NCBI GenBank assembly: GCA_964387845.1
Contig: CAYLXA010000001.1
Span: 290,627-354,626 of the forward strand
Source of the DNA: an uncultured bacterium
GTDB taxonomy: Bacteria > Omnitrophota > Omnitrophia > Omnitrophales > Abzuiibacteriaceae
DNA length: 64,000 bases
Direction of reading: 5' to 3'
In this document: positions 9,512 through 47,276 of the stretch, piece after piece
Layout: every line of letters begins with the position of its first letter
How positions within the stretch are numbered: the stretch's first letter is position 1
Notes under the pieces: generated by a model
The model's input: only the letters and a program-made list of their open reading frames with translations
Database searches by the model: none
Told to the model about the DNA's origin: nothing
Position numbers and translations under genes: made by a program

Positions 9512-9574
9512 AGTTTTAAGTCGTAAGTGGTAAGGGCTAAGTTATTCGATCGCTTAACACTTACCACTTATCAC
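9512..9574. repeat. Heptad-repeat palindrome (NNTAAGT)n ... (ACTTANN)n, copy 1, directly abutting the mnmE start codon
   Basis: TTAAGT CGTAAGT GGTAAGG GCTAAGT ... ACTTACC ACTTATC ACTTATC. Same architecture at 43396-43478 and 47192-47276. Confidence 0.55.
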
Positions 9575-10903
9575 TTATCCCTTCTTCAATTGTTCGCTCG
9601 CTTCTGCGACAAGAAATAACGATCCGGTAATCACCGTGATTGCATTCCGGTCACTGAGCCGCTTTGAATATTCCAAGGCTTCTTTTATATTTTCAGCCGG
9701 GATCATCAAATCAAAATATGCTTTGCCGGCTTCCATCATGACTTTCAAATCCTGCGCTCTCGGCTGATCAGCTTTTGTGAGAATGACTAGCTGCGCAACA
9801 CCGGCCAAAGCACCGAGCATTGATTTTAAATCTTTTTCCCGTGAGGCGCCAAAGATAACCTGGATTTTCTTTCTTGGCAATAAGCGCCTGATGTTTCGGG
9901 CTAATGCGCTCATGGAAGCATCGTTATGAGCGCCATCCAAGATAAACATGCGGCCCTTCTTATTAATCACTTCAAAACGGCCGGGCCATTTAGCCGATAA
10001 AAGACCTGTTTTTATCTGAGATTGGGATATTCCGAGACCCATTTGACGGTTTAAAACATGAATACCGGCTAAAGCCGTTGCAGCGTTTTCTGTTTGAATA
10101 TCGCCGATCAAGTGTATTCGGCAACGTGCCAGCTTGATTTTCTTCATACTGAAATCAAACACAGAGCCATTAATATCCATCCGGCGAATTCGAGCTTGGA
10201 AATCCGTGCCCGAAAAGATACCCTTCACGCCAAGCGTGCGGCATCTTTTTTGAAGTACTGATTTTGCTTCAGATGTTTGTTTCGACGATACAAACGGCGT
10301 GTTGCGCCGGATGATCATGGATTTGTCTTTCGCGATTTTGGCAATGGTGCTGCCCAGATGCTCCTGATGATCCAAACTGATCGGCATCATCACCGACAAA
10401 TTCGGATGAACGATGGTCGTTGCGTCAAGCCGTCCGCCCATTCCGACCTCGAGAACCGCCCAATCAATTTTTTGCTCCGCAAAATATAAAAAAGCAATCA
10501 GTGTTGAAATTTCAAAAAATGTGATGGGTTCAAGCAATTTAATCTCGCGGCGTCTTTTCTCGATGGTCCTTTTTACTTTCGATACCAGCTTCGCGAGTTC
10601 CGATTTTGATATCATTTTCCCGTTAACGCGGATCCGCTCGCGAAAATCAATCAAGTGCGGCGATGTGTACATCCCGGCTTTGAATCCGGCAGATTGGAGA
10701 ATCGATTGAAAAAAGACAGCGGCCGAACCTTTTCCCTTTGTTCCGCCGATTAAAATGGACGGATACTTTTTCTCGGGATTGCCGAACCAGCGCGCAAGCA
10801 CACGCATCCGCTCGATGTTGAGCTCGCGTTTGTATTCGAAATGCGACACTTTCTCGAGGTTAAAGAAGGAATAAAGATACTGAAGCGCCGAAGCGTAGGT
10901 CAT
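9575..10903 (-). CDS. folC: Folylpolyglutamate synthase/dihydrofolate synthase (Mur-ligase family)
   Basis: LIGGTKGKGS P-loop of Mur ligases and overall FolC architecture. Confidence 0.8.
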   Translation of the reverse strand: MTYASALQYLYSFFNLEKVSHFEYKRELNIERMRVLARWFGNPEKKYPSILIGGTKGKGSAAVFFQSILQSAGFKAGMYTSPHLIDFRERIRVNGKMISKSELAKLVSKVKRTIEKRRREIKLLEPITFFEISTLIAFLYFAEQKIDWAVLEVGMGGRLDATTIVHPNLSVMMPISLDHQEHLGSTIAKIAKDKSMIIRRNTPFVSSKQTSEAKSVLQKRCRTLGVKGIFSGTDFQARIRRMDINGSVFDFSMKKIKLARCRIHLIGDIQTENAATALAGIHVLNRQMGLGISQSQIKTGLLSAKWPGRFEVINKKGRMFILDGAHNDASMSALARNIRRLLPRKKIQVIFGASREKDLKSMLGALAGVAQLVILTKADQPRAQDLKVMMEAGKAYFDLMIPAENIKEALEYSKRLSDRNAITVITGSLFLVAEASEQLKKG

Positions 10904-10915
10904 GGAAAGCGGGGT

Positions 10916-12478
10916 TTAATGTTTGAAATGACGTTCGCCGGTAAAAACCATGGCAATGCCGTAATGATCGCAGGCCGCGATAACTTCCGAATCTTTAATC
11001 GAGCCGCCCGGCTGAATGATGGCACGGATACCGTTCTGATGGGCGACTTCGATATTATCCGGCATCGGGAAAAACGCATCACTCGCAAGCATGCTTCCGC
11101 GCGACCATGATTTTGCTTTTTCGCAGGCCAATTTGACGGCATCGACCCGGGACGTCAAGCCGCCGCCGATTCCCACGGTCTGCGTTCCGCGCACAAGCAC
11201 AATCGCGTTTGACTTCGTGACTTTGACGCAGCGCCAAGCAAAAAGCAGAGATGCCAATTCTTCTTTCGACGGCTTTGATTTCGTAACGGTTTTCAAATTT
11301 TTATTCAGCCTGGCTAAATGATGGTCAATCGGGTCGTCTCGGTCCTGCAGCAAAACGCCGCTTTTCACGTACCTCAAATCATACGGCCCGATGTGGCGAA
11401 ACTCTGGCACTTCAATAACGCGGAGATTTTTACGCTCCTGGAATATTTTGAGTGCTTCTTTTGAAATTTTAGGCGCAACAACGACTTCGAAGAAAGTAAG
11501 TTTGGCAAAAAGCATCCGCGCAGCAGCGGCCGTCACTGGCTGATTGACGCCCACAATACCGCCGAACGCCGAAAGCGGATCGCAATCGACAGCCTGCGCA
11601 ATCGCAGTTTCCAGATCCTGATTCACGGAAATGCCGGAAGGATTGTTGTGCTTCACCACACACGCCGCGGTTTCTTTGAATTCGCGCATGATGTCGACCG
11701 TTGCATCGATATCAAGAATATTGTTATATGAAAGTTCTTTGCCCTGAAATTGAGTAAACGAAAATTTGGGCGCCGAATCAAGCCGCGTGTAAAGCGCCGC
11801 GCGCTGGTGCGGATTTTCGCCGTACCTGAGCGTGGCGGATTTCTTAAACGGAACGCTCAAAAATTCAGGCAGGCCTTCTTCTTTCACAAATTGCTTTTCA
11901 AGATAATGCGCAATGGCATGATCATAAGCCGATGTATGCTGAAACGCTTTCAGAGCAAGTTTCTCTAGCGTTTCTGCCGATAATTTTCCGCCGTTCTTCT
12001 GCAATTCTTCAGCCAACACTGTGTAATCCGCTGCATCGGTAACGACCGCAACCGATTCGTGATTCTTCGCCGCCGAACGGATCATCGCCGGGCCGCCGAT
12101 GTCGATATTTTCAATAGCTTCGGCCAGTTTCACCTTCGGATTTTTGACCGTTTCCTGGAACGGATAAAGATTGATGACCACCATATCGATCGGCTGAATG
12201 CCGTGCTGTTTGGCTTGTTTGGCGTGCGATTTAAGGGAACGCCGGAATAAAATGCCGCCGTGAACTTTGGGGTGAAGGGTTTTGACGCGCCCGTCCATCA
12301 TTTCAGGAAAGCCGGTAAGATCCGAGATATTTTTAACCTTGAGACGCGCTTTCTTGAGCGCCGCCTCCGTACCGCCGGTTGAAATCAACTCAACGCCTAA
12401 TTTGGCAAGCGTTTTTGCGAAATCCACGACGCCGGTTTTATCGGATACGCTGATGAGTGCGCGTTTAATTTTTGCCAT
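10916..12478 (-). CDS. purH: Bifunctional AICAR transformylase/IMP cyclohydrolase PurH
   Basis: MAKIKRALISVSDKTGVVDFAKTLAKLGVELISTGGT (MGS-like IMPCH domain) followed by the AICARFT domain. Confidence 0.9.
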   Translation of the reverse strand: MAKIKRALISVSDKTGVVDFAKTLAKLGVELISTGGTEAALKKARLKVKNISDLTGFPEMMDGRVKTLHPKVHGGILFRRSLKSHAKQAKQHGIQPIDMVVINLYPFQETVKNPKVKLAEAIENIDIGGPAMIRSAAKNHESVAVVTDAADYTVLAEELQKNGGKLSAETLEKLALKAFQHTSAYDHAIAHYLEKQFVKEEGLPEFLSVPFKKSATLRYGENPHQRAALYTRLDSAPKFSFTQFQGKELSYNNILDIDATVDIMREFKETAACVVKHNNPSGISVNQDLETAIAQAVDCDPLSAFGGIVGVNQPVTAAAARMLFAKLTFFEVVVAPKISKEALKIFQERKNLRVIEVPEFRHIGPYDLRYVKSGVLLQDRDDPIDHHLARLNKNLKTVTKSKPSKEELASLLFAWRCVKVTKSNAIVLVRGTQTVGIGGGLTSRVDAVKLACEKAKSWSRGSMLASDAFFPMPDNIEVAHQNGIRAIIQPGGSIKDSEVIAACDHYGIAMVFTGERHFKH

Positions 12479-12493
12479 TTTTGTTTCCTAATT

Positions 12494-13381: not shown

Positions 13382-13404
13382 AAAAACAGGGCTGACTATT
13401 CGGA

Positions 13405-16400
13405 TTATGCGGAGTAGAAAACCTGCATTTGCGCGCGGAACTTGCCGACCAAATATGCCGCGGCTGATAATACATGGTCCACAAACGCTTGGTTCCAGAT
13501 TATGACCTTGTCTGCGATTTTTTCAAGAAATGGAACGGCAACCGCGTCATCTGAAACACCGATAATGGCCATGGAAAGACCGAGATTTCTAAGTTCGGCG
13601 CGCGCCTTGTGGTAATCCTCAACGGGAACAATCCTATTTTTTGGATTTGCAATGGTTGCATTAATCTCGTCGATGACGCGAAGCTCTGCGCGGTTTGTCA
13701 CGATCACCATGTAAGAACCGTAAACATCCGAAAGATTCCGGCCAACCACAGCCAGACTTCCCTTTTCGCCGAAGAAAGCGTTACGCGTAAACACTTTCCC
13801 TTCCCGCATCTCTGATCGATTTTGAAGTGCTGTAACAATCTGATTGTCAAAACTGCGAGCGTTTGACACAATCCGGCGCATTTCGCTTCTCGCTACCGGT
13901 GCAATCTCAGTTTGCAAATCTCGGAATAACGGATTTTCTTTGACTTCAACTCTTCCTTTAGCAATGGTTTTTTCAGTCTTTGCAATGACGCGGAAATTAA
14001 AAACTGTTTCACCCGAAACTTCGGACTGCACCTTGGCCATAATTAGCGGGAGCCCCAAAACTTCGCTTTGCACCTTGTCTCCGATTTCAGTATTATTGAA
14101 AGCATCTGCTTGATTTAGAATCGACTTTTCAATCGCGCTTTGAAAATCGATTGGTTTGATTTTTTGAAGGCTTTCCGGCAGCAATTCCTTGTTAATTTCG
14201 CCTTCCAAATGAATACTGACATCATAACGGCTTCCAATTGTCTTTTGAGCGATTGTAAAATTCCGGTGTTCGCTTGTTAGCGATTTGACGCCCGCCTGCT
14301 CATAAAATTGAGCATCAATAACGGGAACCTCGCGGTCTGCGATCTCTTCTAAAATCCGGACCGCGCGATGAATATATTTAGCGTGCCGGAAACTTCTTCG
14401 CTCATTTTCGCTCAGAGTCAAACTCCTGTTTTTCATCTGCAATTCCGAATACCAGCGCCGGAATAACTTCATAATTTGAATCAGCGAAAGCGGCTGGTTA
14501 GCGCCGAGCGGATTGGATGAATTTTGTTCGTAAATTCTATTAATATCTGTCTCGCTTTGAGCTGTCCAGCTTGATTTTTCCTGATTTAAAACCGCTTTAA
14601 GTACCGGAATATAAAAACCTGTGTCACGCTCAATCCACCAATTAAGCACATAAAGAGCGGCGAAGCGCGCAGATTGGCGCAGCATATCCGGATTAAAGTT
14701 TTTAGGCGCTACTTCAATGAGCGGTTTCCATTCATCAACCGGAATAACCGGTTCAGCTAAGTATTGAAGCAGTGTTTCGAGGCCAACCTCATTTCCTTTT
14801 CCAAGCTCATCGGCTCTTGTCTTCCGGATTGTAAAATTAGGATGCGACAAATTTCTAAGAAGTTTTTGCACCGAACGCAGTTCTGATTTTTGGCTGCCGG
14901 CATCAGGCCCAGGCATCGGCTCTGTCAATTTTTGGAAACGTTCGGCCAATTCGGTTTCTGAGATTTTAAACATTTCGTCAACAAACGCTTCGGAACCGCC
15001 AAGCTCCCCTCCGTCTTCTCCGAATAAACGGACTTCGACTAACTCATGAAACGCAACGGCAAATCTTTCGGCCGATATCCTTTCTTCATCCGTTTTGAAT
15101 TCAAACTGAAAAGCGAGACGCGTATCCTTAACCGCTTCAAGCGTCATCAAGGCCATCGGATTATCCGCTTCGATCCATTCAGCACTCCCTTTGTTCAGAT
15201 TTTTGATCTTAACAGAAACATTTTTTGCTAGGGCGGCTTGCGCCATTTCGACAATGAACATCGCTGGACTCGCATGGACACCTTGCCGGTTCTTGACCGT
15301 AACATTGATCTCAATGCTGTTACTTTCCCCTTCCCGCAATTCCGACATGTTTCTATCAGTCGGCGTTACGGACTTTTTATATTCATTAATCTGATGATCG
15401 AGAAAAGCTTCGTAACTATCAATGGCCTGGCTTGTTTGCGCCAACCACTCTTCTTCTTCTTTCAATAATAGGCCATGTTCTTCTTTCATTCCCTTCAAAG
15501 CAGACTTTGCTTTTCGAAGCTCTGGTAATATTCTGAGATAATAATCGTTCGCTTCCGCGGCTAGAGAATTGCCTCGATCCGAAACTGACAAAATAAAGCT
15601 GCTGAAACGATTCAACAAAACTTCCGTGCGGCTCAATAAAATCTTAATTCTGAGCTGCTGTTCATCCAAAGCGATTCGCCTCGGTTTGATAAGAGAATAA
15701 TAAAGGAGCGCTCCGACTCCTATGCCTATCGCGCCCGCTGAAATACCGATAACGGTATAATTTCGTAATTCAGAACGATGTTTAGGCGGACGGGGAAAAC
15801 TTTGAAAAGGCCCCCTGCGCGCAGCGCGGACAGCCTGAATTCTCGCCGTCACTTCTTCAATAGTATCTAAGTCACCGGCTAATTCTGCGTTATGAAGCTC
15901 GACTTCCAATCTTGCCAAATCCGTCGAGTGATGCGATTGGTCTACAGCAAACGGAAGCTCGATCGGCTCCTCATTTTCCAAATCATTGCGCAGTTCCGAA
16001 CGGACACCGGATTTTTCGCGAGGCGGCTGTTCAGATTTCGGCGGAACCGGGATCCATCCTTCCCACCGGCGGTAAACATGCGTAGGCCGCGTCCCTACTT
16101 CATTGGAAATATTTTTACCGCGCACGCCATGAACCTGATGGGCTTCATCACGCCGTAAAACTTCGGCTCTTTGTGCACGAAAATAATCATCCGTAAAATG
16201 AGTGATTTCGCCGGTTTTTAAGCCCGCGCGGCGCCAGTCAATGTGCCCTTCGGGATGAACAACACGCATATCTTTCTTCAGTACCTGCAAAGCTCCGGAA
16301 AATGCGGCGTGATTAAACAAAATAACTGTTTTCCCGCGATACTGCTCGTTCATGCGTTTCCAAAAAGCGGCGGCGCGGATGATTAAATGGGCAAAACTTT

Positions 16401-19400
16401 CGCCATGCTCAGGTTTCGCCAAAACACTCCACTTTTGATAACTTCGCGCGGCCTTGAATTGTTCCCGGCCAAACTGCGCCTTAATTTGCTCATTGGTGAG
16501 CCCTTCCCATTCGCCTTGAAAAATTTCTTTTGTATCGGGATCAATCATCACTTTCAGTTCAATTCCTAATTTTTCACGTACCAACCGGATAAATGGTTCT
16601 GCCGTATCCCGCACACGCCCAAGCGGATTAATGATCACCACAAACTGATCCGGATTTGCTGTGATTTGGTCTTTAAACTTTTCAAATAATTTTTCAGCGT
16701 CAGCTTGCGCTTGCACGCGCCCTTTTGGCGTCAACTGCGCGCCTTCGTTATCCATACCGCTTCCCTGAAACCTCTTTCTCCCTGTTCTTAGCCCTTCCGC
16801 AATGATGTGAGTTTCTCCGTGGCGGATAACGTAAAGATCCAGATCAAGCGCCGGTGGGAAATAAGGCTCTTTATAAAAAAGCTGCCCGGTCGATTGATTG
16901 ACCCAAAAACCCATTTGTTGCAATGTTTCGGAAACATTTTTTCGCAATTCCACCCTCGCCTTCATTAATAAATCCGGCTGTATTGCACTGGTCGGAACCA
17001 CAAGTTTGCCGTTTTCCCAATAGACCAGCGCACTCAAAAACTGGAACATGACCGGATCATGTTTTCTCACAAAATCAGGGTCAAGCCAGTAAAGAGACTG
17101 GGCTTCAAAGAAAAACTCTCGCGCAGAAACAATGCTGTATCGGCTCAAAAACTGCGTTTCAATTTCTTCTTGAGAATAATCAAGCACCTGCTTCTTTTTC
17201 CCAAATTGCCTTTCAAGTGCCTGCAGCCTAGTCTCATAAATCCGTTTTGCAATCTGATAAACTGCTGTTTTATCGTGTGGAATGTTCACAATAGAGAGTG
17301 GTAAATTTTTATTCGCAAAATGCTCTAAGCGCTCAAAGTTAATCGGCAGCGCATACTGATTATGCTCAACGAGCGTTTCCGCAAGTTCGTGAGTCAGGAG
17401 CCGTTCTAAATAAGTAAAGTCCTTATCCCTCACCTTCAAAAATTCATCGCTCACTGGCCCGTCATAGGAGATCGGATGATCGCCCGCATAAAGTGAAAGA
17501 AAGATCGATTTAACATTGGACAGCACAGGATGAAGGGAGTGATAGGTAACGCCTCCCAAATGATCTCCGTTGCGTCTTACGATAGAACGCGCAATAAATA
17601 CTTGGGCATTGAGCATTTTAAAAAGCGGTGCAATTGCAATGCCGGCCCTATGGCTTTCAAGGAAATGATTGAGCTGGCCATATAACTTACGCGCTAATCT
17701 CCAGTCGGTTTCACTGTTTAATCCATGCAATACATCAGTCCGAATATGTGCAGAAGAGCCTTGTAGATAACCCAAAACAATTTGACGCAATTCCGCCCTT
17801 GCCCCCTTTGAAGAAACATTTTCATGATCCGCTGGGGCCGAGGGGCTTTCTTGTAGTTCTTGCAAAATTAATATCACTTCGTCCGGAAGTCCTAATGCGC
17901 TTAAAGCATCCTTGGCGCTTTCGAGCTGATGAAAACTGAAATGATCCGCAAATCTTTCTGCGCGAGACTTATTTCCCAGCAACCCTGTCAAAAATGGGAT
18001 AGCCAACTCACGAAAATGAATGCACCATGGCTCCGCTTGAAGAATCCGGTTGGTCAGATAAAGCAGTTTTTTAAGCTGTTTAAACGATAAATCGCTATCT
18101 TGAAGCGCGGCACGGATTGCGTCATGGCCTGCATCCAACAACATAGTCTTAGGGGCAGCACTTTCCGCTTCGGAATTCCTGAGCTCGGAACGTATGGCTC
18201 TAGATTTAATAGCAACGCTGCCGAGATACACATTGCCGCTCTGGTGATAAAGAAGCGGGTTTTCGTGGCCATCCATGCTGATAACGTCTCCATCCGCGAT
18301 ATCACGGCCGGCGATGAGCCAAAGATGCTTTTCCGGCTGGAACACCATGTCCGGAACGCCATAAACGGCCGAAATGCCTTCTTTCTGCGCCAGCGTTTCC
18401 GCATGCACTGAAATGGTCTTCGCTAAAATATGAACCCCTTTTGGAATCCGGTTAATCATTTCGGGATTCACTCTGTCCAAGATCAAAATAACGCCGTCAA
18501 CATCCGCTCGGGGATGAGAAACAAGTTCGCCCAAAAGCTTTTCCGCTGCTTCTATCGAATTAGCCGCCAAACCGCGAATCGCACCGCCGCTCACGCCATG
18601 GCCGCGCGCAATCGGCTGATTGTCAGTCGAGTCGGCAAATTCCGGATATTGATCCGTCACAAAATCATCATTGCTTTGGACAATCCATATCTTTCCGCGC
18701 TCAATCGTGAATTCAAACTGCTGGTTGTAACGGAAAATGTTCTTGAGCTTACGCGCGTACTCGAACACTTGTGCGTAAAGCTCCGGCTGCAATGCTTCAA
18801 ATGTTTGTTCATCCGGCCGGATTCGCTCACCATTTCCGATTAAAATGTAATTTTGGCCGGCACGGCTCATCAATTGATCGCCGATCGAGTGAAACCGAAA
18901 TTTACCTTGGAGCACGTCATGGCCGTCCGGAAGTGTTCTCAAAACTGCGTGCCCCGCGCCTGAAATTTTCCCGTCATCAGTCGGCTTTAAATTTCCGAAA
19001 ACGCCTTTCTGCAGAATAACGACCGTTCCCCACTCTTGCGAAATCTGATGCCGTGTACGATACGCGCGTGCCTCTTCGGAGTCCCACGATGCATAAACCG
19101 CTTCGACTGCCATCATGACCTGATCCATCATGTCGTTTGGAATTATTTTGCCGTGCCGCGCCACGATTGCTTTGCACTGTTCCACCACTGCCTTCATGCC
19201 GTCTGCCGACAAATCTTCCTTTTCTTTAACATTCAAAACCTGCTCAAATTCCGCCTCAGGAATACCGAGCACATTGATCGAAAATGACCGGATAAATTCC
19301 GCGTAGGTGTCATACGCAAACCACGCATCGCCGCTTTTTTGGGCAAGCGCTTCGGCTTCCGCGTCGTTCATGCCCACATTCGACACAGTAGCCAAAAGGC

Positions 19401-22400
19401 CGGGCAGCATGAAAGCAGAACCGCTTCGCGCGTACAAAATAAGCTTGAGGTCGGGATACTCGGAGTAGCGTTTGAGCCGTTCGATTTCGGCTGCGATTTT
19501 TTGACGGAATTCGTCCGACCTGAAAATGTCGGGTTTCGTCACTAACTTGGCGCTCAAGATGACACCCGGCGGTACGGGAATCCTCTCGTGCGTCATGCGG
19601 ATCAAGTTCAGGCCCTTTTTGCTCCAAAGCGAGAGAAGTTCCGGCCGTTCATCCGTTTCATTTTCGCCAAACCGGTACAAATGTTGCTCGAAATCATCCG
19701 GCCTTTCCGCGCCGGCATCCTCACGGATGGCTTCGTCCTGGCCTTGCGAAAGCGCAGAAGCGAGAACAGCATCAAATTTCATGAGCGCGCGGTCAAATGC
19801 CGTCGCGCCGGAATTCCGGATCAGCTCATCAATCACCGCGGCTTCAAGTCTCTCTTTTCCTTCAGGCGGAAAGTCATAAATTTGATAAGTCTGATCATCC
19901 TCTGTTTTGGTTTTGATTTTAAAGAGGCTGGTATGTTCGCGCCATAATTTTGCCAGATCGTGATAACCAACTTCATCCAAGCTGTATTGCATGGCCGCGC
20001 GCATGGTGTTATTTAGTTGCCGGGTAATTTTGTGGACTTCGGCCTCAAGCGTGTGGACCAAATCGTAGAGCTGCGACGCCTTAATGCTGCCCGAATCAAG
20101 CTCAACCATCAATTGATCAAAATCGACACCACCCAGCCCTGAAGCCTGAATAAACCGGCCGAGCGCAATGAGATTGGGCAATTCGCGCCGCAAATCGTCT
20201 ACAGAATTTATTTTTTCAATCTTTTCCTGGACGTGAGCAATCTTTTCCGAAGCTAAAATCGATAATTTCTCGCTCATTTCAACCAACGTGCGTAAATCAT
20301 ATAGATAATCACCTTCTTCATGCATATCGTTCCACTCCTGGTCTATATCATCCGCATCCTCATCGGCCGAATCTTCGCCGTCCCGCCCAATGCTCTTCTC
20401 TGCCTGTCCCAATACTTTTTTCTGATTTTCCTCTCCGGAAAGCAAAAACTCTTTAAGATCATTTTGCACTTTCACGATGGCGGAGAAAATGGCCGCATGA
20501 TCATCAGAATCGATCAACATAAGCAGCCGATCGTAATCCTCCCGCATAAACCGGGTAATGGCCGTCATTTTCTTTTTCAAGTACCCACCGTCACGCAGAT
20601 CTTCAGTTTCTCCTTTTAAGAAAGGAACGATCGTCGCGACGCGAGTTCCGAAATGATCCGCAAAAGCCAAATAAAGTTGAGTCATTAATTGAACGCGTTC
20701 ATAGTCAATCTCGGACACATCTTCATCCCGGTTCGCTTCTTCATAAATCGCGACTACTTCACGCTCCGGAATGTCCAGGATTTCATCCAGAAAAGCCTCC
20801 GGATCGCTTTTGCTGATTTTCCCTTTGGCCGCAAGCGCTTTGACAAAACGGTTCAAGAGTTTTGAATAAGTTTGAAGAGTCGCTGGATTGAAATCTTTTG
20901 TCATATCATCCCGCAGCAGAGTCCAGTTGCTTTCCTTTAAAATAGACTCATCAAGCGTCAACCAATAAGCAAGAACTCTTCTCGTATTCTCAAAGTCACT
21001 TCTATTCAAGTTTCGATGAATACCGTCTCTAAAATGGCTGAACCATCCGCGGCCAAACTCGCCGGGATAAGAGGCATTATTATCAAGCCGTCTTGAATAG
21101 CTGATAATACGGTCCTGCGAATTATCCGTAGAGACGCCGCCCTTGCGTTCGGCTTCGATGACTTTCATTAAATAAAAATAGGCCGCTCGGGCGTTTGGTT
21201 GATGGAGCAAATACAAGGACATCTGCGGATACTCTATGCGCTTTCTGCCTTCGCTTGGAATATCACGCACAAGGCCTTGGGCTGCCACAAAAGCAGCGGC
21301 AAGCGGATCCGCCGGTGAAACGCTCAGCAAGATAGAAATCAGTTCCCTGAAAAATTCGTGGCCTATGGTTCGGAGGTGCAGCAGAAGGTGAATCAGTTTA
21401 CCCAAGTCGTCAGGACTTGCTTGGCGGAAAGTTGCTTCTAAATCATGGTGGATATCAGCTTTGATGTAATGCTCATTAAAGTAAGCGGCTGCCAACTCAA
21501 GAAAAATCCGGTTCTCTTCCGGCGAATTTGTTTTAGAGAGGTAAATCGGAATCAAATGCTCTTTAAAGAAAGCATCCGTCATTCTATAGCGGTCGGGCGA
21601 CATCGCGCTCGACACGTACCACAAGTAGCTCTGTTTCTTATCCAGCGGTAAATCTGCTTTTAAAATAAACTCGCGAATCAAATTCTGCAGATGCTCTTTA
21701 GAATTTTTTTTAAGTAGGTCGATAATCGCCTCTTTCCTCGCCCCGACGGCTTGATTTTGCTCAAACGACAGGTGCTTGCCGCCTCTTCCAAAACTTAGTT
21801 TCATGAGTGTTTGGTAATCGCGCAGCGCTTTTTCGAATTCTTTATAAGACATTGGGTTTGTACGACCGTCCGACCTGAGCTCGGAACGTTTTTGGGCAGT
21901 AAGTGTTTTTAAATTCGGAAAAAGTGTGCGGAACGGTTCGCCGAAAAAGAGGCGGCGTCGGACAGCCTCTTTGCGGCGATGAATAAATGCGGCTTGAGTC
22001 GGAAAAATAAGATGCCTCGGCAGAGGAGCGTATTTTAAATAAACAGGAGCTGATGTATTGATACCAACATTTAATTCCGGGTCTTGCAAATTCGGCAGCG
22101 GAAGCGTGAGCACCGCATCCCGCAGAGGATTTTTACTGCGGTCACCGATTGTGCGAATCAGCATGCTGGCTTGAACCTCGCTTACATCCCACGGTGAACG
22201 GAATCCCAGCCGAACCCAGTCAGATTCATTACGCGATAAAACTTCCGCGACCAGTTTTTCTATTTTTTCATTCGAAATTTTTCGGCCCGTTTCAACACCG
22301 TTCTGATCCAGTTCGGGAACATCGGTCAGCATCCGGCTTAGATATTCCGTCATGGATTGTTTTCCGGTGCGGCGTTTTGTATCGTCCGGCCAAAATCTGG

Positions 22401-25400
22401 CGCCATACTTCAGTGAGAATATTTTTACGCCCAGATCTGTGGATCTGTAACCAAACTTCCAATCATGAACGTCTTGATCCAGCATGACCGATAAGGCCCA
22501 TAGCATCAAATTTCGATACGTGAAACCCGGATAAGACTGCGAGAATTTTCGTGTAGACGGCGGTATATCGGCCAAACGTTCTTCGGGCCATGCCGATACA
22601 ACACTAATGAACCGCTTGACATAATCGGCCAGCAGCTCGTTGTCCGAGGGTTTCTTGATTTCTTTCCCGTCAAATTCCTCAATATGAAGACCGGTCGGAC
22701 GCAGATGTATGACTTGCGTCAAGCCCAATGTCCAGTAAGCGTAAAATAAATCCTCTAAACCACCCGCAAGCAGATGATCCAGACGGCCTGCAAATTTTTC
22801 AAATTCGTCCAGGTCTTTGAAATAGGGATCGATTAACGTTGCCAAAAATTGGTTGAGGTTGCCGAATTTCTTGTCAAGGCCCCGGTTTTCCCATTCCCGG
22901 CGCAATTCGACGCCGAGCTCGCGTAATTCCCTATTCGAAAATCCTTCGGGCAATACCTTGCTCCAATAAATGCGCCTGTCCTCTGAGCCGCTTCTGGGCC
23001 AAAACCGATTGGAGTCGTGCGGGCTCAATAGAAACGTCAGAGCTTCAAGGATATCGCCTTCCGTCAGACTGTCATAAATCTTATTCGGAGAGCCCGCTTG
23101 ATCCATCAAATCGCGAATCACATCCATAACTTGATCGACTTTTGAACGTTGGGTGACCGCGGCAGTTTGCCTAAGTTCCGAACGGTTTTTCAGAATTTGC
23201 CGCCGTTCTTCGAGCGTAAAAAATTGTTTTTCGTAAGCTCTTTTTGCGGCTTCCCGGATTTTTCTATTAAACCGGTCTAAATCAGTTATTTCCTTCTTTA
23301 AAAAATCAAGCCACTGTTTTGGTTCAATGGTCATTTCCCCGAAAAATTCGTCGCTCAAAAGCATCAACAGCTGCACAAATGCGACTTTGTACAAAGGATC
23401 TTCCTGATCCAAGGCAGCCCGCATCGCATCTGATACCGGAAGTACCGGATTCAGATAAGGGAACAGGATTTGAGCCGGATAGGACGACCGGATTAATTCA
23501 TTCAATTTAGCTTCTACTTCAAAGTAAGCATGGGCCAACAACCCCTGCTGATCGCCTTCATACCCGCCCAGCGCATGAGCCAGCAAACTTCCGGGACGCA
23601 GGATAGCTTTCATCACATTAATCCAATAGAGCGATGTTGAGTAATCGTTTTCTCCCTTATAAAATTCGTTTGCAAACACATAGGCATCGGAATGGCTAAG
23701 TTCCTCCTCTAAAACTCCGCTCCGGTATAATTGTGCGACATACCCATAATCGCCCAAACTATAAAAATGCATTTGAATCCAATCTCGTAAGTAAGCGACG
23801 GGTGATTGATCAAAATTGGGAAATTGATACTGGCCCGTTTCATATAACTTTTTCAAATTTTGGTAATAATCAAAATTTTCTATCGAAGGAACGTCGGTGC
23901 CTTCAATAATGACAATATGCCTGTCTTTCGCAAATGCACTTAGGTAACTGTCGCTCTTTCCGTCTCTCGATTTGAGGCGAACGGTGTAAACCGGAACAAA
24001 CCGGCCTGCCGCAGAGCGCTGAGATTCCCTTTTGATAATTTTACCGACCAAGAGTCCGCTGCCGTTCACTATGTCCACGATCAGGCCACGTGGAATTAAA
24101 ATATCGTCCGCGATTTTTGTTCCTATTTTTCCGATATCATAAATAGAAATCAAATCTTTGTGGCCAAATGAAAAAGCGGCATCAAAATCCGGTGAAAGAG
24201 GCCTGAGAACCTGGTTGAATGTTTCAACGGCCTCAAGACGGTTTAAGTCATTTAGACTGGCTTTTTCGACTAGGTACTTTAGCTTCGGCCAATAGCTCAC
24301 CCAAAACCATTCCACAACATCAAAGCTGGGGCTATCCGGATTTAGGAGCCTAAACTCTCTGATTAAGTTGAGAATTTGATTCGCCTGGCTGGTGTTGAGC
24401 GTGATCTTTCCGCGCAAAGCTTTGATAATGCCTTGCGCATTTAAATTTTGAGTTTCCAAAAATTCTTTCAGAACATCTACGGTAAAAAAGCGTTTAATAT
24501 TTTTTACGCTTAATTTCGAAATGATGAGAGCATGCAGCGTTTGAACCGGATCCGTATTTACTGCTTGTGCCGTCTGATTGCGCAATTCAGAGCGGAGTAG
24601 CTCAGACTGCGGGGCAGCGGTTTGACCTTGCAACGGGATTTCCCAGAAATTGCGGGCGTTGCGGGCAGAATCGAAGAATGCTCTGGCTTTCGCACGGTTG
24701 CCTTTGGTTAACTCGAATAATCCAAAAATAATTGCGTAAGCTCTTTCCGTAAAGCTACGCGACTTTTTTAGCACAAAGTCACGGGCCAGCCACCGGTAAC
24801 GGAATGCGTCAAAATGATACTGAAAACCGGCTTCCGGATCGTGAATCTTTTTAATTGTATTGCGCGAGGCTCCCTGAGAGTAGTGCTGATCTAAATAATC
24901 GCGGCCGTAGTTGGTAATCCCTGCATAGATCTTCTTAAAGCCCGAACGCCGCGCGACATCTTGAAGAATCTGAATCGCTTCCGGCATCAGTTCATCGAAA
25001 TATTTTGCACCGTCATTGTTAAACTCGAAACTGTTGACCGTTAGTACCGGATCTCCATTGTCTTCCGATGCAATCATCCACATCTGTGCCCGATGCTGAT
25101 AGGCATCGCCTGAACCCTTGTGATCGATGTCCGCCAGGATAATTCCGTCGTCACTCAGGAGAGAGGGCAAAATCCAGGAGACAAAATGCTGCAGAGAAAT
25201 ACAATTTCCGATGGCTTCACTTGAAGTGAGAAAATCTATCGCGCCTTTCAGGGTCTTTTTGTCGTGAATTCTTATTCGAATTCCCTTTTCTTTATTTTCG
25301 TAAACCCTGCCCTTCTCAAATTCAGAAACATTGATGCCGATTGCCTGCATTTTTTTCTCAATGGCTGAAACATGGCCTGTTTTGCGAAGTCTTTCTGACA

Positions 25401-32952: not shown

Positions 32953-34261
32953 GCCGGTACATCAAAAACCCTGAGCCCAACTTCGGGTAAAAATAAGTAG
33001 ACTTTTGCGGCATCAATTCTCCCGAAGCGCAAATAGCCTGCATCACTTTGGCTTCAATCGGCGGCACAATCACAGCCGCGTCAAACTTCTTGGAGCGTAC
33101 GCCTTCGAGTGCCTCATCCGAAAAGCGCGTGTATTCGAGAAAATGCTCGAGATTTTTATCATCAACACCAAGATGTTTCAAAACCAAATGTGAAACCTGC
33201 GCGACTTCAAGCCGGTACCAAATGTCGGGTTTTCCGGCCGGCATCTCCGCGCGTGCTTTTTGAATGTCTTTGATTTTAAATAAAATCGATTCACCGGGAA
33301 AACAAACCGCGAAAGCGTCCCTGATTTTTCCCTGCGCGAGTTCTTTTACTTCCGTCTCGGAAATTTTTCTCGAGTCAAATAAGGGCGAAAGGATTTGCGA
33401 CAATTCTGACGCGCTTACTTTTTTGATGTTCTTGAGCTGCCGATGGATGGGAAAAATTAAAAGCCCTTCATCTTCCAATTCCACAAGCCCCATTAAGCAA
33501 TAATCGGAAGGCTGCAAGCTGCCAGCTTCAGGCTTCAAGCTTGAAGTTTGCAATTTGGAGCCTGCAGCTTGAAGCTTGCGGCTTGCGGCTTGTTCTTGGC
33601 TATAGCGCAAAGCGGTTTCATAACGGTGATGGCCATCCGCGATTAAAACCTGCTTATCGGAAAACATTTTTGAAATCTGCGTTTTGTCGGATGAATCCGA
33701 AACCGCCCAAAGTTTGTGCGCTTCACCGTCAGAAAATTTAAATTCGTATAACGGTTTTTGTTTCTCAAATTTCTTTCTCAGTTCCTGGGCGGTTCTTTCA
33801 GAATCTTGATAAAGCCCATAAACCGGCGAAATGTTGGTTTTGATTGCTGAGAGCAGCTTGAACCGATCTTCCTTCGGGCCGGAATGCGTTTTTTCGTGCG
33901 GCAAAATCACTTTTGATTCAAAAGGCTCCACTTGAAACAGACCAAAAATCACGACGCGCGTCTTGATGCGGCCCGATTCTGGGTCTTTGAAGATGGTTTC
34001 GTAAAGATAAAAACTCTCTTTTGTGTCTTTTTCGAGAATTTGCTTCCTCAGCCATTCGTTCAGAAATTCAGAAGCTTTTTGATATTTCACACTCGCATCT
34101 TCTTTACCGTATTCGATACGAATGATGTTGTAGGGACTTTTACCGTAAAGCGCTTCCTGCTCGGCAGGTGAAATAATATCGTAAGGCGGAGCAACCACTT
34201 GATCCATTTTGACGGACCCGGAATTGTAACGCAGTGCGCGGAAAGGTTTGATAATAGCCAT
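32945..34261 (-). CDS. Conserved uncharacterised protein, DUF1015-like (family name from memory, unverified), with an in-frame low-complexity insert
   Basis: 438 aa, ADGHHRYETALRYS motif. Insert LQAAGSKLQTSSLKPEAGSLQPSDY is encoded by palindromic AAGCTT/CAGCTG-type repeats at 33511-33600. Confidence 0.5.
   Translation of the reverse strand: MAIIKPFRALRYNSGSVKMDQVVAPPYDIISPAEQEALYGKSPYNIIRIEYGKEDASVKYQKASEFLNEWLRKQILEKDTKESFYLYETIFKDPESGRIKTRVVIFGLFQVEPFESKVILPHEKTHSGPKEDRFKLLSAIKTNISPVYGLYQDSERTAQELRKKFEKQKPLYEFKFSDGEAHKLWAVSDSSDKTQISKMFSDKQVLIADGHHRYETALRYSQEQAASRKLQAAGSKLQTSSLKPEAGSLQPSDYCLMGLVELEDEGLLIFPIHRQLKNIKKVSASELSQILSPLFDSRKISETEVKELAQGKIRDAFAVCFPGESILFKIKDIQKARAEMPAGKPDIWYRLEVAQVSHLVLKHLGVDDKNLEHFLEYTRFSDEALEGVRSKKFDAAVIVPPIEAKVMQAICASGELMPQKSTYFYPKLGSGFLMYRHE
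33511..33600. repeat. Low-complexity palindromic DNA (CAAGCTG / AAGCTTGAAG / GCGGCTTGCGGCTTG units) inserted in-frame in the DUF1015-like gene
   Basis: gctgcaagctgccagcttcaggcttcaagcttgaagtttgcaatttggagcctgcagcttgaagcttgcggcttgcggcttg. Contains a perfect 14-bp palindrome CTTCAAGCTTGAAG. Confidence 0.5.
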
Positions 34262-34350
34262 ATTAACGTAAATTCAAATCTCAAATTTCAAAATAATTTT
34301 GATATTTGAAATTTGAATTTGTTTTGAGATTTGATATTTGAATTTTGAAA

Positions 34351-34695
34351 TTACTTAACAATTGCTCCAGACGGTAAATCTTTTTCGGGAGTTAGAAATG
34401 CGAGACTTGAATCCGTGCTTGCGGCCAGCAGCATGCCTTGTGATTCAACGCCGCGGATCACGGCCGGAGCCAGATTTTTCACCACCACGATTTTTTTACC
34501 GACCAGCTCTTCAGGTTTATAGAATTGTTTAATACCGGCCACGATGGTCCGTTGCTCATCGGCAATCTTAATCCTCAAAACCCACAAACGGTCGGCGTTG
34601 GGATGCGGCTCCACTGCCAGGATTTCGGCCACCCGCAGCTCCAGCTTCTTAAAATCATCGTATGTAATGGTTTCAGTCGTCATTTGAGCCGCCAT
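34351..34695 (-). CDS. tRNA-binding protein (CsaA / EMAP-like OB-fold, MetRS C-terminal-domain-like)
   Basis: MAAQMTTETITYDDFKKLELRVAEILAVEPHPNADRLWVLRIKIADEQRTIVAGIKQFYKPEELVGKKIVVVKNLAPAVIRGVESQGMLLAA. Start trimmed to the Met at 34695. The longer ORF-track N-terminus runs through a palindromic repeat. Confidence 0.65.
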   Translation of the reverse strand: MAAQMTTETITYDDFKKLELRVAEILAVEPHPNADRLWVLRIKIADEQRTIVAGIKQFYKPEELVGKKIVVVKNLAPAVIRGVESQGMLLAASTDSSLAFLTPEKDLPSGAIVK

Positions 34696-36751: not shown

Positions 36752-37291
36752 CTACCCAATCTTCCCGGGCCGATGCGGATCCATCTCAAAACCAATCGCA
36801 TCCGTAGTCGGCGGCGCCAAAAGCGGCCTAATCATTTTGAACAATCTCTGCAAAGCTCTGTCGTGATCGAGCAGAACCTTCTCAATTTCATCCAATCGTC
36901 CGTGCAGAATTTGATTCAGGTTGAAAACTTCTCTCAATCTCACAAAAGCACGGATCACGTAAACGCTCATACGGACAGCTCGGTCACTGTTTAAAATGTT
37001 GGCTGCCATTAACGCCCCGTGTTCTGTGAAAGCAAAAGGAAGATACCGATCGCCACCCCGACCCTCTTTCTTTGAGGTCACAATCTGTGACCTCAAAAAT
37101 TCTGCTTCCTCCAGAGTAAGCTGAAACATGAAATCTGCCGGAAAACGGCTTCGGTTACGTTTGACAGCTTGATTGAATGCTTTTGTGCTCACCCCATAAA
37201 GCTCCGCTAAGTCACGGTCAAGAATAACGCTCTGACTCCGGATGATGAGAACACGATTTTCTACAGCTAATTTAGGACCTCTTTTAGACAT
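36752..37291 (-). CDS. ORF6N / KilA-N-family DNA-binding-domain protein (family seen on phages and mobile elements)
   Basis: MSKRGPKLAVENRVLIIRSQSVILDRDLAELYGVSTKAFNQAVKRNRSRFPADFMFQLTLEEAEFLRSQIVTSKKEGRGGDRYLPFAFTEHGALMAANILNSDRAV is the typical ORF6N-domain signature (from memory). Confidence 0.55.
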   Translation of the reverse strand: MSKRGPKLAVENRVLIIRSQSVILDRDLAELYGVSTKAFNQAVKRNRSRFPADFMFQLTLEEAEFLRSQIVTSKKEGRGGDRYLPFAFTEHGALMAANILNSDRAVRMSVYVIRAFVRLREVFNLNQILHGRLDEIEKVLLDHDRALQRLFKMIRPLLAPPTTDAIGFEMDPHRPGKIG

Positions 37292-37444
37292 GAAACACCC
37301 CTCTTATTGGTTTTAAATGGAGGGGGGATTTTAATTTTGTTTTTTACTGCGGGAGATATGGAATTATATATAACTTTTACGATTAATCAACACTCAACTT
37401 CTAGCCTGTCCCCTTAGAAGGTGCCTGGCACTTTTTTTATGAGA

Positions 37445-38113
37445 TCAAATGACCCCTTTCATTAATGTTTCTTTAACTTTCTTGGCATTTTTTAGTCCTT
37501 CGTCAATCAAAGAAATAAAATACTCAATTTCTCCATTTAAAGTACTAGGATAAAAATCTCCAACCCGACAGCATCCTTCACAAATTCCATCCATAGCTTG
37601 AACGTAAGCGGTTTCAGCAAATGTAAGCCATTCACGCGTTTCATTCCATGTTTCCTTCCCATCATGAGTACGCCAGGGGAAATTATGAACACGTTGAATA
37701 TTCCGATGAGGATTTATCTTGTCACTAATATCTTTTATTTTTTCCTCGTACTCATCAAAATGAGATAAAAACTCTTTTCGTTGTTGTTTTAACCTATCTT
37801 TTGAGAAAGTCTGTCTTTCTAATTTTAGTTCAATATTTTCTTCTGAAACTTCTTTGCTTTTTTGCATTAAATTCCATAAACTAGCTTCACTAGAACGACC
37901 AAAAATCTTTCCTAAAGCGAGAATGTACTTTGTTTCCAAAGCATCTCGAATAAAGCTGAATAAGCCACCAAATTCTCGTTCAAATCCTTCTGATTGAACA
38001 AGCCCGTTATTCCATTTGAATAATAAAGCATGGAAAATGTTAGCCTCGCAAAGATCTCTGCTTACACAGGTTTCTATTACCTTCAGTGAATCTTGAACTT
38101 CATCCATCATCAA
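37445..38113 (-). CDS. Hypothetical protein encoded by a markedly AT-rich gene; contains a possible HEPN-like Rx4-6H motif (RNIQRVH)
   Basis: 222-aa ORF. Local GC visibly lower than flanks (long A/T runs). No recognisable family. Lies between the ORF6N gene and a GC-rich repeat cluster. Confidence 0.45.
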   Translation of the reverse strand: MMMDEVQDSLKVIETCVSRDLCEANIFHALLFKWNNGLVQSEGFEREFGGLFSFIRDALETKYILALGKIFGRSSEASLWNLMQKSKEVSEENIELKLERQTFSKDRLKQQRKEFLSHFDEYEEKIKDISDKINPHRNIQRVHNFPWRTHDGKETWNETREWLTFAETAYVQAMDGICEGCCRVGDFYPSTLNGEIEYFISLIDEGLKNAKKVKETLMKGVI

Positions 38114-41329: not shown

Positions 41330-41332
41330 AGG

Positions 41333-43395: not shown

Positions 43396-43478
43396 TTTTT
43401 ATCCAGTGTTAAGTTGTAAGTGATAAGTTTTAAGTTATTCAATTACTTACCACTTATAACTTATCACTTACCACTATG
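43396..43478. repeat. Heptad-repeat palindrome, copy 2, beginning right after the sucC ATG (in its 5' leader)
   Basis: GTTAAGT TGTAAGT GATAAGT TTTAAGT ... ACTTACC ACTTATA ACTTATC ACTTACC. Confidence 0.55.
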
Positions 43479-43994
43479 TTACAAACTTACAAAACGTCCC
43501 CGCGCGTGTTCCGCTGCAAGCTGAGCGTACCGCTTGGCCCATTCGATCTGGCCTTTGACTTCTTTCTTGGTCAATTTCCGCTTAAATTTAGCCGGCATTC
43601 CAAGATATAAACTCTCAGGTTTTACCTTCATCCCTTCCGTCACAAGCGCTCCGGCGCCCACGAGTGCGCCTTCGCCAATCACCGCGTCATTTAAAATAAT
43701 CGCGCCCATTCCGATCAAGGCGCCCGATTTTACCGTACACGCATGCAAAATCACATTGTGCCCAACCACGCAATAATCACCCACGTAACAGCCGCGCTCG
43801 CGCTCTAAATGTACGAGCGAGAGATCCTGAATGTTTGTGTATTTACCGATCACAATTTCATTAATGTCGCCGCGCAGCACCACGCCGGGCCAGATATTGG
43901 CATAATCCTTGAGCGTCACGCGCCCGATCACTTGCGCAGACGGATGAACCCAGACATTCTTCCCGAGTTTCGGCTTATAAGTAAAAGTCGTCAT
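43479..43994 (-). CDS. Gamma-carbonic-anhydrase-like / hexapeptide-repeat (LbH) family protein
   Basis: MTTFTYKPKLGKNVWVHPSAQVIGRVTLKDYANIWPGVVLRGDINEIVIGKYTNIQDLSLVH. Start trimmed to the Met at 43994. Confidence 0.65.
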   Translation of the reverse strand: MTTFTYKPKLGKNVWVHPSAQVIGRVTLKDYANIWPGVVLRGDINEIVIGKYTNIQDLSLVHLERERGCYVGDYCVVGHNVILHACTVKSGALIGMGAIILNDAVIGEGALVGAGALVTEGMKVKPESLYLGMPAKFKRKLTKKEVKGQIEWAKRYAQLAAEHARGRFVSL

Positions 43995-44074
43995 TGCGAG
44001 ACATAGTGATTGGTGTCGAAGCAATCTACGTTCTGAGATTGCTTCGGCGAAGTTTTCAAAGCGCCTCGCAATGA
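43991..44074. repeat. Repeat family 2, copy 2, with internal hairpin GTCGAAGCAATC..GATTGCTTCGGC and outer TCATTGCGAG/CTCGCAATGA arms
   Basis: Intergenic between sdhB and the LbH gene. See copy 1 at 36477. Confidence 0.5.
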
Positions 44075-44085
44075 CGGTATTTGCA

Positions 44086-46574: not shown

Positions 46575-47189
46575 TTAGACTCTCACTAAGTGAATCAGCG
46601 AACTGAGGCCCATCGTGAAAACAATTACGCCAAGAAGCGCGGAAAACACGGCTGAGACTCTTTGTGATTTTGGCCCGACCGTAATGCCCCAGCTGATTGC
46701 AAATCCCCAAAGGCCGTTTGCAAAATGGAAACACACGGCAGCAAGACCAACGATGTAAAACCAAAATGTAAACGGATTCGCCATAAGTTCCTGCATCCGC
46801 GCAAAACTCACTTCCGTTCCGTAAAGCGCGTGCATAATGCGTGTTTCATAAACGTGGTACAAAATATAGGCAAACGTAATCAAGCCCGTCCAGCGCTGAA
46901 GTACATAGAGAAAATTTTTTGTGTTCGGATAAGACGACAGGTTGGATTTTCCGCTAAACCAGACGTAGAAACCGTAACCGGCATGATACAAAATCGGAAG
47001 CGCGATAAAGATGATTTCAAGTGCAACCACAAACGGCAAACTTTGCAGGAATTCGATTTTTTCGTTGTAAGCTTCCGGGCCTTGTGTAATGAAGGAATTC
47101 GTGAACATGTGCTCCAGCAAAAAAGCGCCGATCGGAAATACGCCGGAAAGCGAGTGGAGCCTTCTAAGCCAGAATGAGGATTTAGACAT
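46575..47189 (-). CDS. Succinate dehydrogenase / fumarate reductase cytochrome b membrane subunit
   Basis: 204 aa, 5 predicted TM helices with conserved His. Immediately upstream of sdhA-sdhB. Confidence 0.6.
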   Translation of the reverse strand: MSKSSFWLRRLHSLSGVFPIGAFLLEHMFTNSFITQGPEAYNEKIEFLQSLPFVVALEIIFIALPILYHAGYGFYVWFSGKSNLSSYPNTKNFLYVLQRWTGLITFAYILYHVYETRIMHALYGTEVSFARMQELMANPFTFWFYIVGLAAVCFHFANGLWGFAISWGITVGPKSQRVSAVFSALLGVIVFTMGLSSLIHLVRV

Positions 47190-47191
47190 TT

Positions 47192-47276
47192 TTCAGTCGT
47201 AAGTTGTAAGTGGTAAGTCGTAAGTTAATAAAATGGTAAGTTTTTGCTTCTTACTTACCACTTATCACTTACGACT
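47192..47276. repeat. Heptad-repeat palindrome, copy 3, between the mdh stop and the sdh cytochrome b start
   Basis: CGTAAGT TGTAAGT GGTAAGT CGTAAGT ... ACTTACC ACTTATC ACTTACG ACTTACA. Confidence 0.55.

Follow-up and report, generated by a model that had tools for sequence, protein, structure and literature searches.

Palindromic arrays of 7-nt units between stop and start codons in an Omnitrophota genome: putative copies of a dispersed repeat family

We analysed a 64,000-nt stretch of contig CAYLXA010000001.1 (assembly GCA_964387845.1; positions 290,627 to 354,626) from an uncultured bacterium of the Abzuiibacteriaceae (Omnitrophota), hereafter the window, in whose coordinates all positions are given. 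Homologues of its MnmE and DUF1015 proteins place it in Candidatus Omnitrophota. Three palindromes in it, E1, E2 and E3, are built from 7-nt units (heptads) containing TAAGT, and lie between the stop codon of one gene and the start codon of the next. The explanation we lean towards takes them as members of a single family of dispersed palindromic repeats, small and non-coding, that was active recently. The family would resemble REP and MITE elements and belong to the class of heptameric repeats, and its copies would have been inserted stop-to-start. What carries this explanation is the state of the same junctions in relatives, the common architecture of the three elements, the association of such elements with gene ends, the dominance of the 7-nt period and the lack of a strand-specific RNA signature.

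Results

E1, E2 and E3 share one architecture

E1-E3 and the genes next to them are on the minus strand, and the three elements align in a single register consisting of xAGT, four heptads, a centre, four inverted heptads and ACT. All three sites read as an initial annotation of this DNA had described them, with about four NNTAAGT heptads followed by about four ACTTANN heptads. Its limits for the first two intergenic gaps also stand, while those of the third had to be corrected (Table 1).

On the plus strand E1 opens with AGT (9512-9514), followed by the heptads TTTAAGT, CGTAAGT, GGTAAGG and GCTAAGT (9515-9542), a middle of 9 nt and four inverted heptads (9552-9579). E2 has AGT at 43405-43407, four NNTAAGT heptads at 43408-43435, again a 9-nt middle, and four ACTTANN heptads at 43445-43472 with ACT at the end. 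E3 is laid out in the same way (AGT 47195-47197, four NNTAAGT 47198-47225, four ACTTANN 47253-47280, ACT at the end) around a middle of 27 nt. The short centre of the three elements is TCGAATA or TTGAATA, enlarged in E3, and the Logan assembly from the same sample is broken within E3.

Allowing up to two mismatches, TAAGTNNTAAGTNNTAAGT matched 19 times, every time in E1-E3, where shuffled sequences would give 0.05 matches. Runs of three or more AGT or ACT were confined to period 7 when periods 4-12 were tested, the exception being one ACT run of period 11, and the tandem repeat finder (TRF) reported period 7 at all sites.

The initial annotation emphasised that each palindrome abuts a start codon, which is correct (start codons lie 3-12 nt past the last heptad), but it missed that the elements equally touch the upstream TAA stop codon, which is inside E1 and E3. 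The outermost heptad of E1 contains the stop codon (9577-9575) of a folC-like Mur ligase gene, and the mnmE ATG (9511-9509) comes directly 3' of the terminal ACT on the mRNA strand. Likewise, the outermost full heptad of E3 contains the mdh stop codon (47278-47276), with the ATG of sdhC, the sdh cytochrome b gene, at 47189-47187. At E2 the TAA of the hexapeptide-transferase gene (43481-43479) precedes the element by 4 nt, and a 9-nt A-rich spacer separates the element from the sucC ATG (43395-43393). Overall, the stop-to-start inserts measure 63-86 nt, and the palindromes themselves 70-90 nt.

The corresponding junctions of relatives are empty

E1-E3 are absent from the corresponding junctions of related genomes (loci compared with the window carry L-numbers here), where the genes overlap or are separated by a spacer of 0-3 nt. 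L200 has an ATGA overlap between folC and mnmE. An ATGA overlap also joins the hexapeptide-transferase gene to sucC in L208, a relative without E2 whose nucleotide sequence is about 88-90% identical to that of the window; L120 reads TAA-T-ATG at this junction. In L122 and L124, mdh and sdhC are 2 nt apart or overlapping. Since the gene pairs of the relatives overlap or nearly abut, parsimony places the gain of all three elements in the lineage of the window, and the comparison thus presents E1-E3 as insertions into formerly overlapping or abutting gene pairs. Their contact with start codons would then follow from insertion into junctions that earlier had no spacer.

Some other differences were seen around these junctions. 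The last codons of the hexapeptide-transferase gene, just upstream of E2 (43482-43500), read TTT GTA AGT TTG TAA in the window, TTT CTG AGT TTG TAA in L120 and TTC CTG AAT TTA TGA in L208, so that two substitutions have made a GTAAGT motif in coding sequence, which could be chance or a spread of the repeat motif. A second palindromic repeat family, not built of heptads (CGTCATTGCGAG ... GAAGCAATCT-N-AGATTGCTTC), fills the gap between sdhB and the hexapeptide-transferase gene (44025-44085). The same family occupies this junction in L208 (72-162), and in L120 (2537-2644) it is at the mdh/sdhC junction, where the window carries E3. Finally, an ORF6N-domain gene and a HEPN/AbiU2-like gene (36752-38113) form an island between the arginase and inositol-1-phosphate synthase genes; as it is missing from the syntenic region of L208, it is probably an inserted defence or mobile module.

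TAAGT elements in other genomes adjoin gene ends

When 185,579 species genomes were scanned for a run of three TAAGT heptads opposite two of ACTTA type, at least 118 stretches matched, against about 0.03 expected by chance (an arithmetic estimate). By record title, the matches listed come from Bacteroidota, Acidobacteriota, Omnitrophota, Cyanobacteriota, several Pseudomonadota, Verrucomicrobiota, Planctomycetota, Patescibacteria and others, with binning errors possible in the metagenome-assembled genomes (MAGs). Culturable carriers include Pedobacter spp., Pinibacter soli, Niastella populi and Arcicella aurantiaca.

Gene context was taken from crude open reading frame (ORF) calls, and 74 copies among the matches listed could be classified: 46 lie between co-directional genes, 22 between convergent genes, where there is no start codon, and 6 between divergent genes. 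Among the same matches, 92% of the TAAGT-type copies adjoin a gene 3' end, with stop codons mostly -10 to +21 nt from the element edge and often supplied by a heptad's own TAA or by the TGA in TAAGTGA. Start codons are found a median of about 9 nt past the element, and the spacer left once the element is subtracted has a median of 17.5 nt. What these distances and contexts point to is a link with gene ends and minimal spacers rather than with start codons themselves. The suggestion of the initial annotation that the region 5' of start codons is targeted finds no support, given the 22 convergent copies and a tightest tie to stop codons.

Period 7 also dominates around the copies in other genomes. 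In 824 kb from the 118 TAAGT-selected genomes (among the matches listed) there were 316 period-7 arrays, compared with 6-15 for periods 6, 8 and 9. More than 100 of the period-7 arrays in these 118 loci carry unrelated units, many of them without AGT. Since the carrier genomes also hold many other units, the idea of TAAGT as a universally recognised motif is weakened; if heptad palindromes of arbitrary unit are common, we roughly estimate that a unit type sharing five of seven bases would turn up by chance in about 100 genomes.

In the heptads that the search pattern left unconstrained, AGT or ACT was kept in 76-91%, while the preceding TA was kept in only 43-45% at the outer edge, indicating that the elements have phase-defined AGT...ACT ends. 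The variable NN positions of the two arms were complementary in 53% of cases in mirror register and in 51-54% when shifted by one heptad, so the arms are two convergent arrays and not mirror copies, and an origin by snap-back (a perfect mirror) is rejected. The arms are also often unequal in length. TA on both flanks was enriched (36 observed, 26.8 expected, p=0.009), TA being itself part of the unit. IS630/Tc1-like elements, which have CAGT ends next to TA, are a poor match for these flanks. In viral contigs, inward and outward arrangements gave four and two matches respectively, too few to use.

In some genomes the element is dispersed as discrete copies that are 80-100% identical. Nostoc sp. 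NMS4 has a 166-nt segment that is 100% identical at two loci (L041:5807-5972 and L066:449-614), another MAG has a 182-nt segment at 98% identity, and a Pyrinomonadaceae MAG has copies of about 80 nt that are 80-92% identical at unrelated loci. A dispersed family of REP type, one of the possibilities raised by the initial annotation, is thus supported by the absence of the elements from the junctions of relatives, by their single architecture and by copies up to 100% identical elsewhere. As a separate observation, the 166-nt Nostoc repeat has a TAAGTAA palindrome as its core, a TTGACA-like motif at its start and a terminator-like hairpin with a T-run at its end; this type of TAAGTAA repeat (also at L075:2698-2855) resembles a small transcribed unit.

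Other heptad palindromes occur in the same genome

The count of three given by the initial annotation is right for palindromes of TAAGT type and incomplete for heptad palindromes as such, since E4, E5 and E6 have other units (Table 1). E4 begins about 4 nt past the TGA stop codon of a ribonucleotide-reductase gene and spans the gap up to a short-chain dehydrogenase gene. E5 starts right at the TAA stop codon of a gene with a tRNA-binding domain and ends 10 nt before the ATG of the DUF1015 gene. E6 is in frame and encodes the low-complexity insert AASRKLQAAGSKLQTSSLKPEAGSLQP, which is missing from a 95%-identical homologue (P0122) and present in a 79%-identical one (P0123), so coding sequence, too, can gain or lose heptad arrays. 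The same genome carries, about 17 kb left of the window, one more stop-to-start heptad palindrome (L210:19467-19575; unit NATAGCG / CGCTNNN), a fourth intergenic unit type, in which the end of the last heptad forms the downstream ATG.

Table 1. Heptad palindromes in the window
Element	Position	Strand	Type or unit	Location
E1	9512..9579	-	TAAGT-type heptad palindrome	fills folC-like/mnmE gap (9512-9574)
E2	43405..43475	-	TAAGT-type heptad palindrome	hexapeptide-transferase/sucC gap (43396-43478)
E3	47195..47283	-	TAAGT-type heptad palindrome	mdh/sdhC gap (47190-47275)
E4	4255..4338	-	heptad palindrome, GGGTCAA ... TTGACCC (mRNA strand)	
E5	34262..34353	-	heptad palindrome, WTTCAAA ... TTTGARA	
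E6	33509..33595	-	in-frame heptad palindrome, CAAGCYK, about 84 nt	DUF1015 gene (ORF 32945-34261)

Altogether, 73 kb of this genome hold four unit types besides TAAGT, all with a 7-nt period; TAAGT is not special to the phenomenon, and the heptad class has several unit types here. The preference for this period is also seen in 583 kb of Omnitrophota loci chosen regardless of repeats, which contained 31 period-7 arrays against none in shuffles, with no excess at periods 8, 10 and 11 and with coding repeats accounting for periods 9 and 12. Palindromes adjoining sdhB in relatives use yet other units (TCGTA, GTCACC, GAATTGC and TCGATTG).

At the junction of E5, L208 has a diverged version with TTCGAAA-like units, in which both unit and copy number have changed, suggesting rapid concerted evolution in place. 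Such a process would let old insertions gain private units, while recent ones (those of TAAGT type) still share theirs.

The change of E5 in situ also bears on whether mobility is needed at all, because polymerase slippage of 7-nt units together with a strand-switch duplication might have grown each palindrome locally, making the family likeness only apparent. Among the longer simple repeats of bacteria, heptamers are the most over-represented, for which slippage is a proposed explanation (Mrazek 2007, as cited in PMC4679880 and PMC4692102); the freely varying arm lengths would fit as well. We nevertheless consider local growth quite improbable, since the ancestral junctions, with 0-3 nt of spacer, offered no seed repeat, three independent sites arrived at one unit in one four-plus-four arrangement around similar centres, other genomes have discrete identical copies at unrelated loci, and the phase of the outer ends is defined, with AGT kept in 76-86% and TA in 43-45%.

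Two further features of the window were noted. A single minus-strand ORF of 5975 aa (13405-31332) is the source of part of the period-9 and period-12 coding repeat signal. In addition, 34 of the 35 large ORFs of the window are on the minus strand and GC skew is negative throughout, which fits a long co-oriented stretch of one replichore.

E1-E3 fold stably and do not resemble terminators

The fold-energy calculation suggested by the initial annotation gave stable structures on the mRNA (minus) strand, of -26.1, -25.1 and -37.3 kcal/mol for E1, E2 and E3, with z-scores of -5.5, -3.8 and -7.8. Its statement that no U-run follows the palindromes, and that they are not canonical terminators, agrees with the terminator and promoter scans, which made no call at E1, E2 or E3, and with a reading of the sequence, in which no U-run is visible; the GC-rich stem and U-run of an intrinsic terminator are lacking, the tails being AAAACUAUG, GGAUAAAAAAUG and GAAAAAUG. 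No part of the window matched Rfam at the gathering threshold, and E3 gave only sub-threshold matches to generic long hairpins (miRNA precursors). No Shine-Dalgarno-like motif was found upstream of mnmE, sucC or sdhC.

Elsewhere, a GC-rich hairpin of 17 bp (7887-7925) lies in the 522-nt gap upstream of the ribonucleotide-reductase gene (7613-8134), as does a strong match of sigma-70 type (8098-8070, 11/12); Rfam detected no riboswitch there.

Transcription terminators, or else DNA-level arrays for a binding protein such as iterons, are the least probable of the readings weighed here. The strict periodicity, the conserved 5-nt core and the palindromic layout would suit a repeat-binding protein, as the initial annotation had suggested; however, this genome holds no fewer than four further types of heptad with the same period, so that the 7-bp spacing goes together with several unrelated unit sequences. 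Moreover, no replication or partition genes were found nearby among the window ORFs scanned, E1-E3 have neither a U-run nor a terminator call, and the elements are inside operons, where the downstream genes are essential genes of the tricarboxylic acid (TCA) cycle or of tRNA modification.

When the two strands were compared, the mean folding energy was -26.5 kcal/mol on both (n=46, p=0.84). The sense strand thus has no folding advantage, which argues that occlusion of the start region and coupling to upstream translation, plausible as they are, would be a consequence of the elements and not their evolved purpose. This result also makes it unlikely that E1-E3 are evolved cis-regulatory RNA hairpins that set the expression ratio of neighbouring cistrons, whether by RNase III processing, by stabilising the upstream mRNA at its 3' end or by making translational coupling obligatory. 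Such a role would account for the stable folds (z -3.8 to -7.8), for the stop-to-start placement within operons and for downstream genes without Shine-Dalgarno-like motifs, and translational regulation was proposed by MacGregor for TAACTGA repeats upstream of start codons (PMC4679880). It does not account for NN positions whose complementarity in mirror register is no higher than after a shift of one heptad, for the 30% of classified copies (among the matches listed) that lie between convergent genes, or for E6, which is in frame inside a gene; in addition, plain overlaps suffice in close relatives, and Rehm et al. saw no regulatory role for the counterparts in Xanthomonas (PMC4692102).

Discussion

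A proposed dispersed family inserted stop-to-start

If E1-E3 are copies of a dispersed family, as we propose, each element would comprise two convergent 7-nt arrays, with NNTAAGT reading inward on both strands and AGT...ACT as outer ends. A gene running into three TAAGT heptads, from whichever side, would meet a TAA in each of the three frames, and the elements would persist between genes because they are nearly harmless there.

The ancestors of mnmE, sucC and sdhC presumably relied on overlap coupling. In the polycistronic mRNA the insert would loop out as a predicted 25-34-bp hairpin, with the upstream stop codon at its 5' foot and the downstream AUG a few nucleotides beyond its 3' foot. Since the three genes have no Shine-Dalgarno motif, the initiation region would be sequestered until a ribosome that completes the upstream gene opens the stem at its foot. 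A linear spacer of about 20 nt abolishes termination-reinitiation (PMC10666635), so expression of mnmE, sucC and sdhC probably needs a terminating ribosome to open the stem in this way. The hairpin thus probably keeps or enforces the old translational coupling as a side effect, and its long stems (25-34 bp) may be substrates of RNase III. Coupling would be a consequence and not the purpose, given that the elements also occur between convergent genes and inside a gene.

Several points weigh against the proposal of a mobile family. No transposase, RAYT or reverse transcriptase (RT) was found in the scan of window ORFs (which did not cover four larger ones, among them that of 5975 aa), and no 3-4-nt target-site duplication was found at the element flanks, which show nothing beyond TA. 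In this genome only three diverged TAAGT copies were seen in about 73 kb. The nearest relatives are at least 10% diverged, so the comparison of junctions has no exact empty sites. Elements are also found between convergent genes, where coupling is irrelevant. Finally, several unit types per genome are awkward for a sequence-specific mobilising enzyme, and concerted evolution in situ has to be invoked.

Relation to known repeats

The closest counterparts are the GGGAATC repeats of Xanthomonas, of which Rehm et al. (2015) described 70-75 convergent heptamer pairs per genome, about 90% of them intergenic, transcribed, scarce between divergent genes, near the upstream ORF and with no function found (PMC4692102). 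Like these and the GGGGAYT repeats of Nostoc PCC 7120, the elements described here consist of tandem 7-nt units with conserved and variable positions, typically about four (PMC4692102). As in Xanthomonas, two convergent arrays on opposite strands lie near the 3' end of the upstream gene, with few between divergent genes, and length and sequence vary among close species, which in our case is seen in the absence of E2 and the different E5 in L208. The differences are that the Xanthomonas unit is G-rich and forms quadruplexes, whereas TAAGT is AT-rich; that the Xanthomonas repeats leave an average of 160 nt before the downstream gene, whereas the elements here take up the whole stop-to-start gap; and that insertion into formerly overlapping genes is not reported for them (PMC4692102).

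Direct TAACTGA repeats just upstream of start codons were described by MacGregor (2015) in Beggiatoaceae, cyanobacteria and Bacteroidetes (PMC4679880). These and the cyanobacterial STRR sequences share with our elements the intergenic tandem heptamers, often a few nucleotides from a start codon, and the patchy distribution across phyla, and they show indels in 7-nt steps between strains (PMC4679880). Unlike here, the TAACTGA arrays are mostly direct (with one indirect repeat in the Beggiatoa genome) and their unit has another sequence (PMC4679880). The translational-regulator site proposed for them misfits the palindromic form, the occurrence in both orientations and the convergent-gene contexts of the TAAGT elements.

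Similarities to mobile palindromes were also considered. E1-E3 resemble MITEs in being small, AT-rich and non-coding, with inverted ends and with presence or absence differing between relatives, and in some genomes also in having discrete identical copies at unrelated loci (the 166-nt Nostoc unit). They differ in that the arms are slippage-prone tandem arrays of unequal length instead of fixed terminal inverted repeats, and no parent insertion sequence (IS) of E1-E3 was found in the window ORFs scanned (four larger ones unscanned). REP, BIME and REPIN sequences are short extragenic palindromes with many genome-specific copies that are transcribed into operon mRNAs as hairpins. Like the TAAGT elements, REPs are over-represented past the 3' ends of genes and in gaps whose flanking genes are convergent or co-directional. 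REPs, however, have no 7-nt periodicity and carry a GTAG/GGAG head read by RAYT, an IS200/IS605-like Y1 transposase of which no example was present among the scanned ORFs (four larger ones unscanned). The elements described here have (Y)AGT...ACT(R) termini and a body of heptad arrays, and in E1-E3 we did not find a GTAG/GGAG head with a 20-40-nt palindrome unit. Neither do they look like attC sites, as the flanking genes are syntenic housekeeping genes in relatives and a GTTRRRY / RYYYAAC core was absent on reading.

E1-E3 display every class feature that was tested and lack those of REPs, intrinsic terminators, attC sites and Rfam families, which assigns them to the known and unexplained class of heptameric repeats. 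Within it, the TAAGT unit is an AT-rich addition, present in Omnitrophota and many other phyla. The class itself was already known; what is new here are the filled and empty junctions, the cross-phylum TAAGT family and the tests of anatomy.

A possible parallel with template-resetting reverse transcriptases

One sequence match deserves mention. Among systems of the defence RT DRT10/UG17 (Tang et al. 2025, PMC12632851; Sanchez-Nieto et al. 2026, preprint), one synthesises (AGTAATA)n cDNA, with 5'-ACUUAUUACU-3' as its template. AGTAATA is NNTAAGT with NN=AA, and the Nostoc copies have exactly this unit. Both ACU triplets of ACUUAUUACU are essential, the middle is tolerant, and both cDNA strands were detected (bioRxiv 10.64898/2026.04.29.721553). 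This anchoring on an ACU/AGT triplet parallels the conservation of the genomic heptads, in which AGT/ACT is the best-kept part and marks the outer ends.

Conceivably, then, the elements are scars of templated synthesis, in which a telomerase-like, template-resetting RT of DRT10/UG17 type extended both 3' ends of a break with AGT-anchored heptads before the ends were rejoined. Arms that are convergent arrays instead of mirror copies, and flanks in which target duplications were not found, would be as expected. Even so, this is very much a long shot: DRT10 synthesis is protein-primed and its extrachromosomal defence product is mainly single-stranded, and its template units vary widely in length and sequence, one being 9 nt (PMC12632851). 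Genomic integration of the product is not reported, other unit types of the same genome lack AGT, and the match, which came from a motif-directed literature search, may be coincidence. A DRT10/UG17 system consists of an RT, a SLATT effector and an ncRNA whose A-B-A' template matches the repeat; the likeness here is of unit sequence only, and no RT or SLATT was found in the window ORFs scanned (four larger ones unscanned). The identity of the units is real, but with protein priming and variable template units it is a weak lead.

With the same small probability, convergent heptad arrays in general, STRR included, could be a bacterial counterpart of interstitial telomeric repeats, made by break healing with a DRT10-like or unrecognised RT. 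If true, this would account for a strict period of 7 nt, for arrays pointing inward on both strands and for phase-defined AGT...ACT ends, as well as for the sloppy variable positions, the missing target duplications and the recurrence of one unit at new sites.

Implications

Heptameric repeats were reportedly flagged as STRR as early as 1990, and to our knowledge nobody has explained their 7-nt period, origin or function. The locus holds a warning for annotation: stop codons and short C-terminal residues of housekeeping genes can come from repeat elements, and assemblies tend to break at heptad elements. Nothing shows E1-E3 to be a purpose-built regulatory switch. What the locus offers is three clean comparisons of filled and empty sites at formerly overlapping, translationally coupled genes. 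The route by which the elements are copied, whether transposase, slippage or a templating polymerase, is now approachable by experiment, and so is the question of whether a self-looping hairpin can rescue or enforce coupling over a spacer far above about 20 nt.

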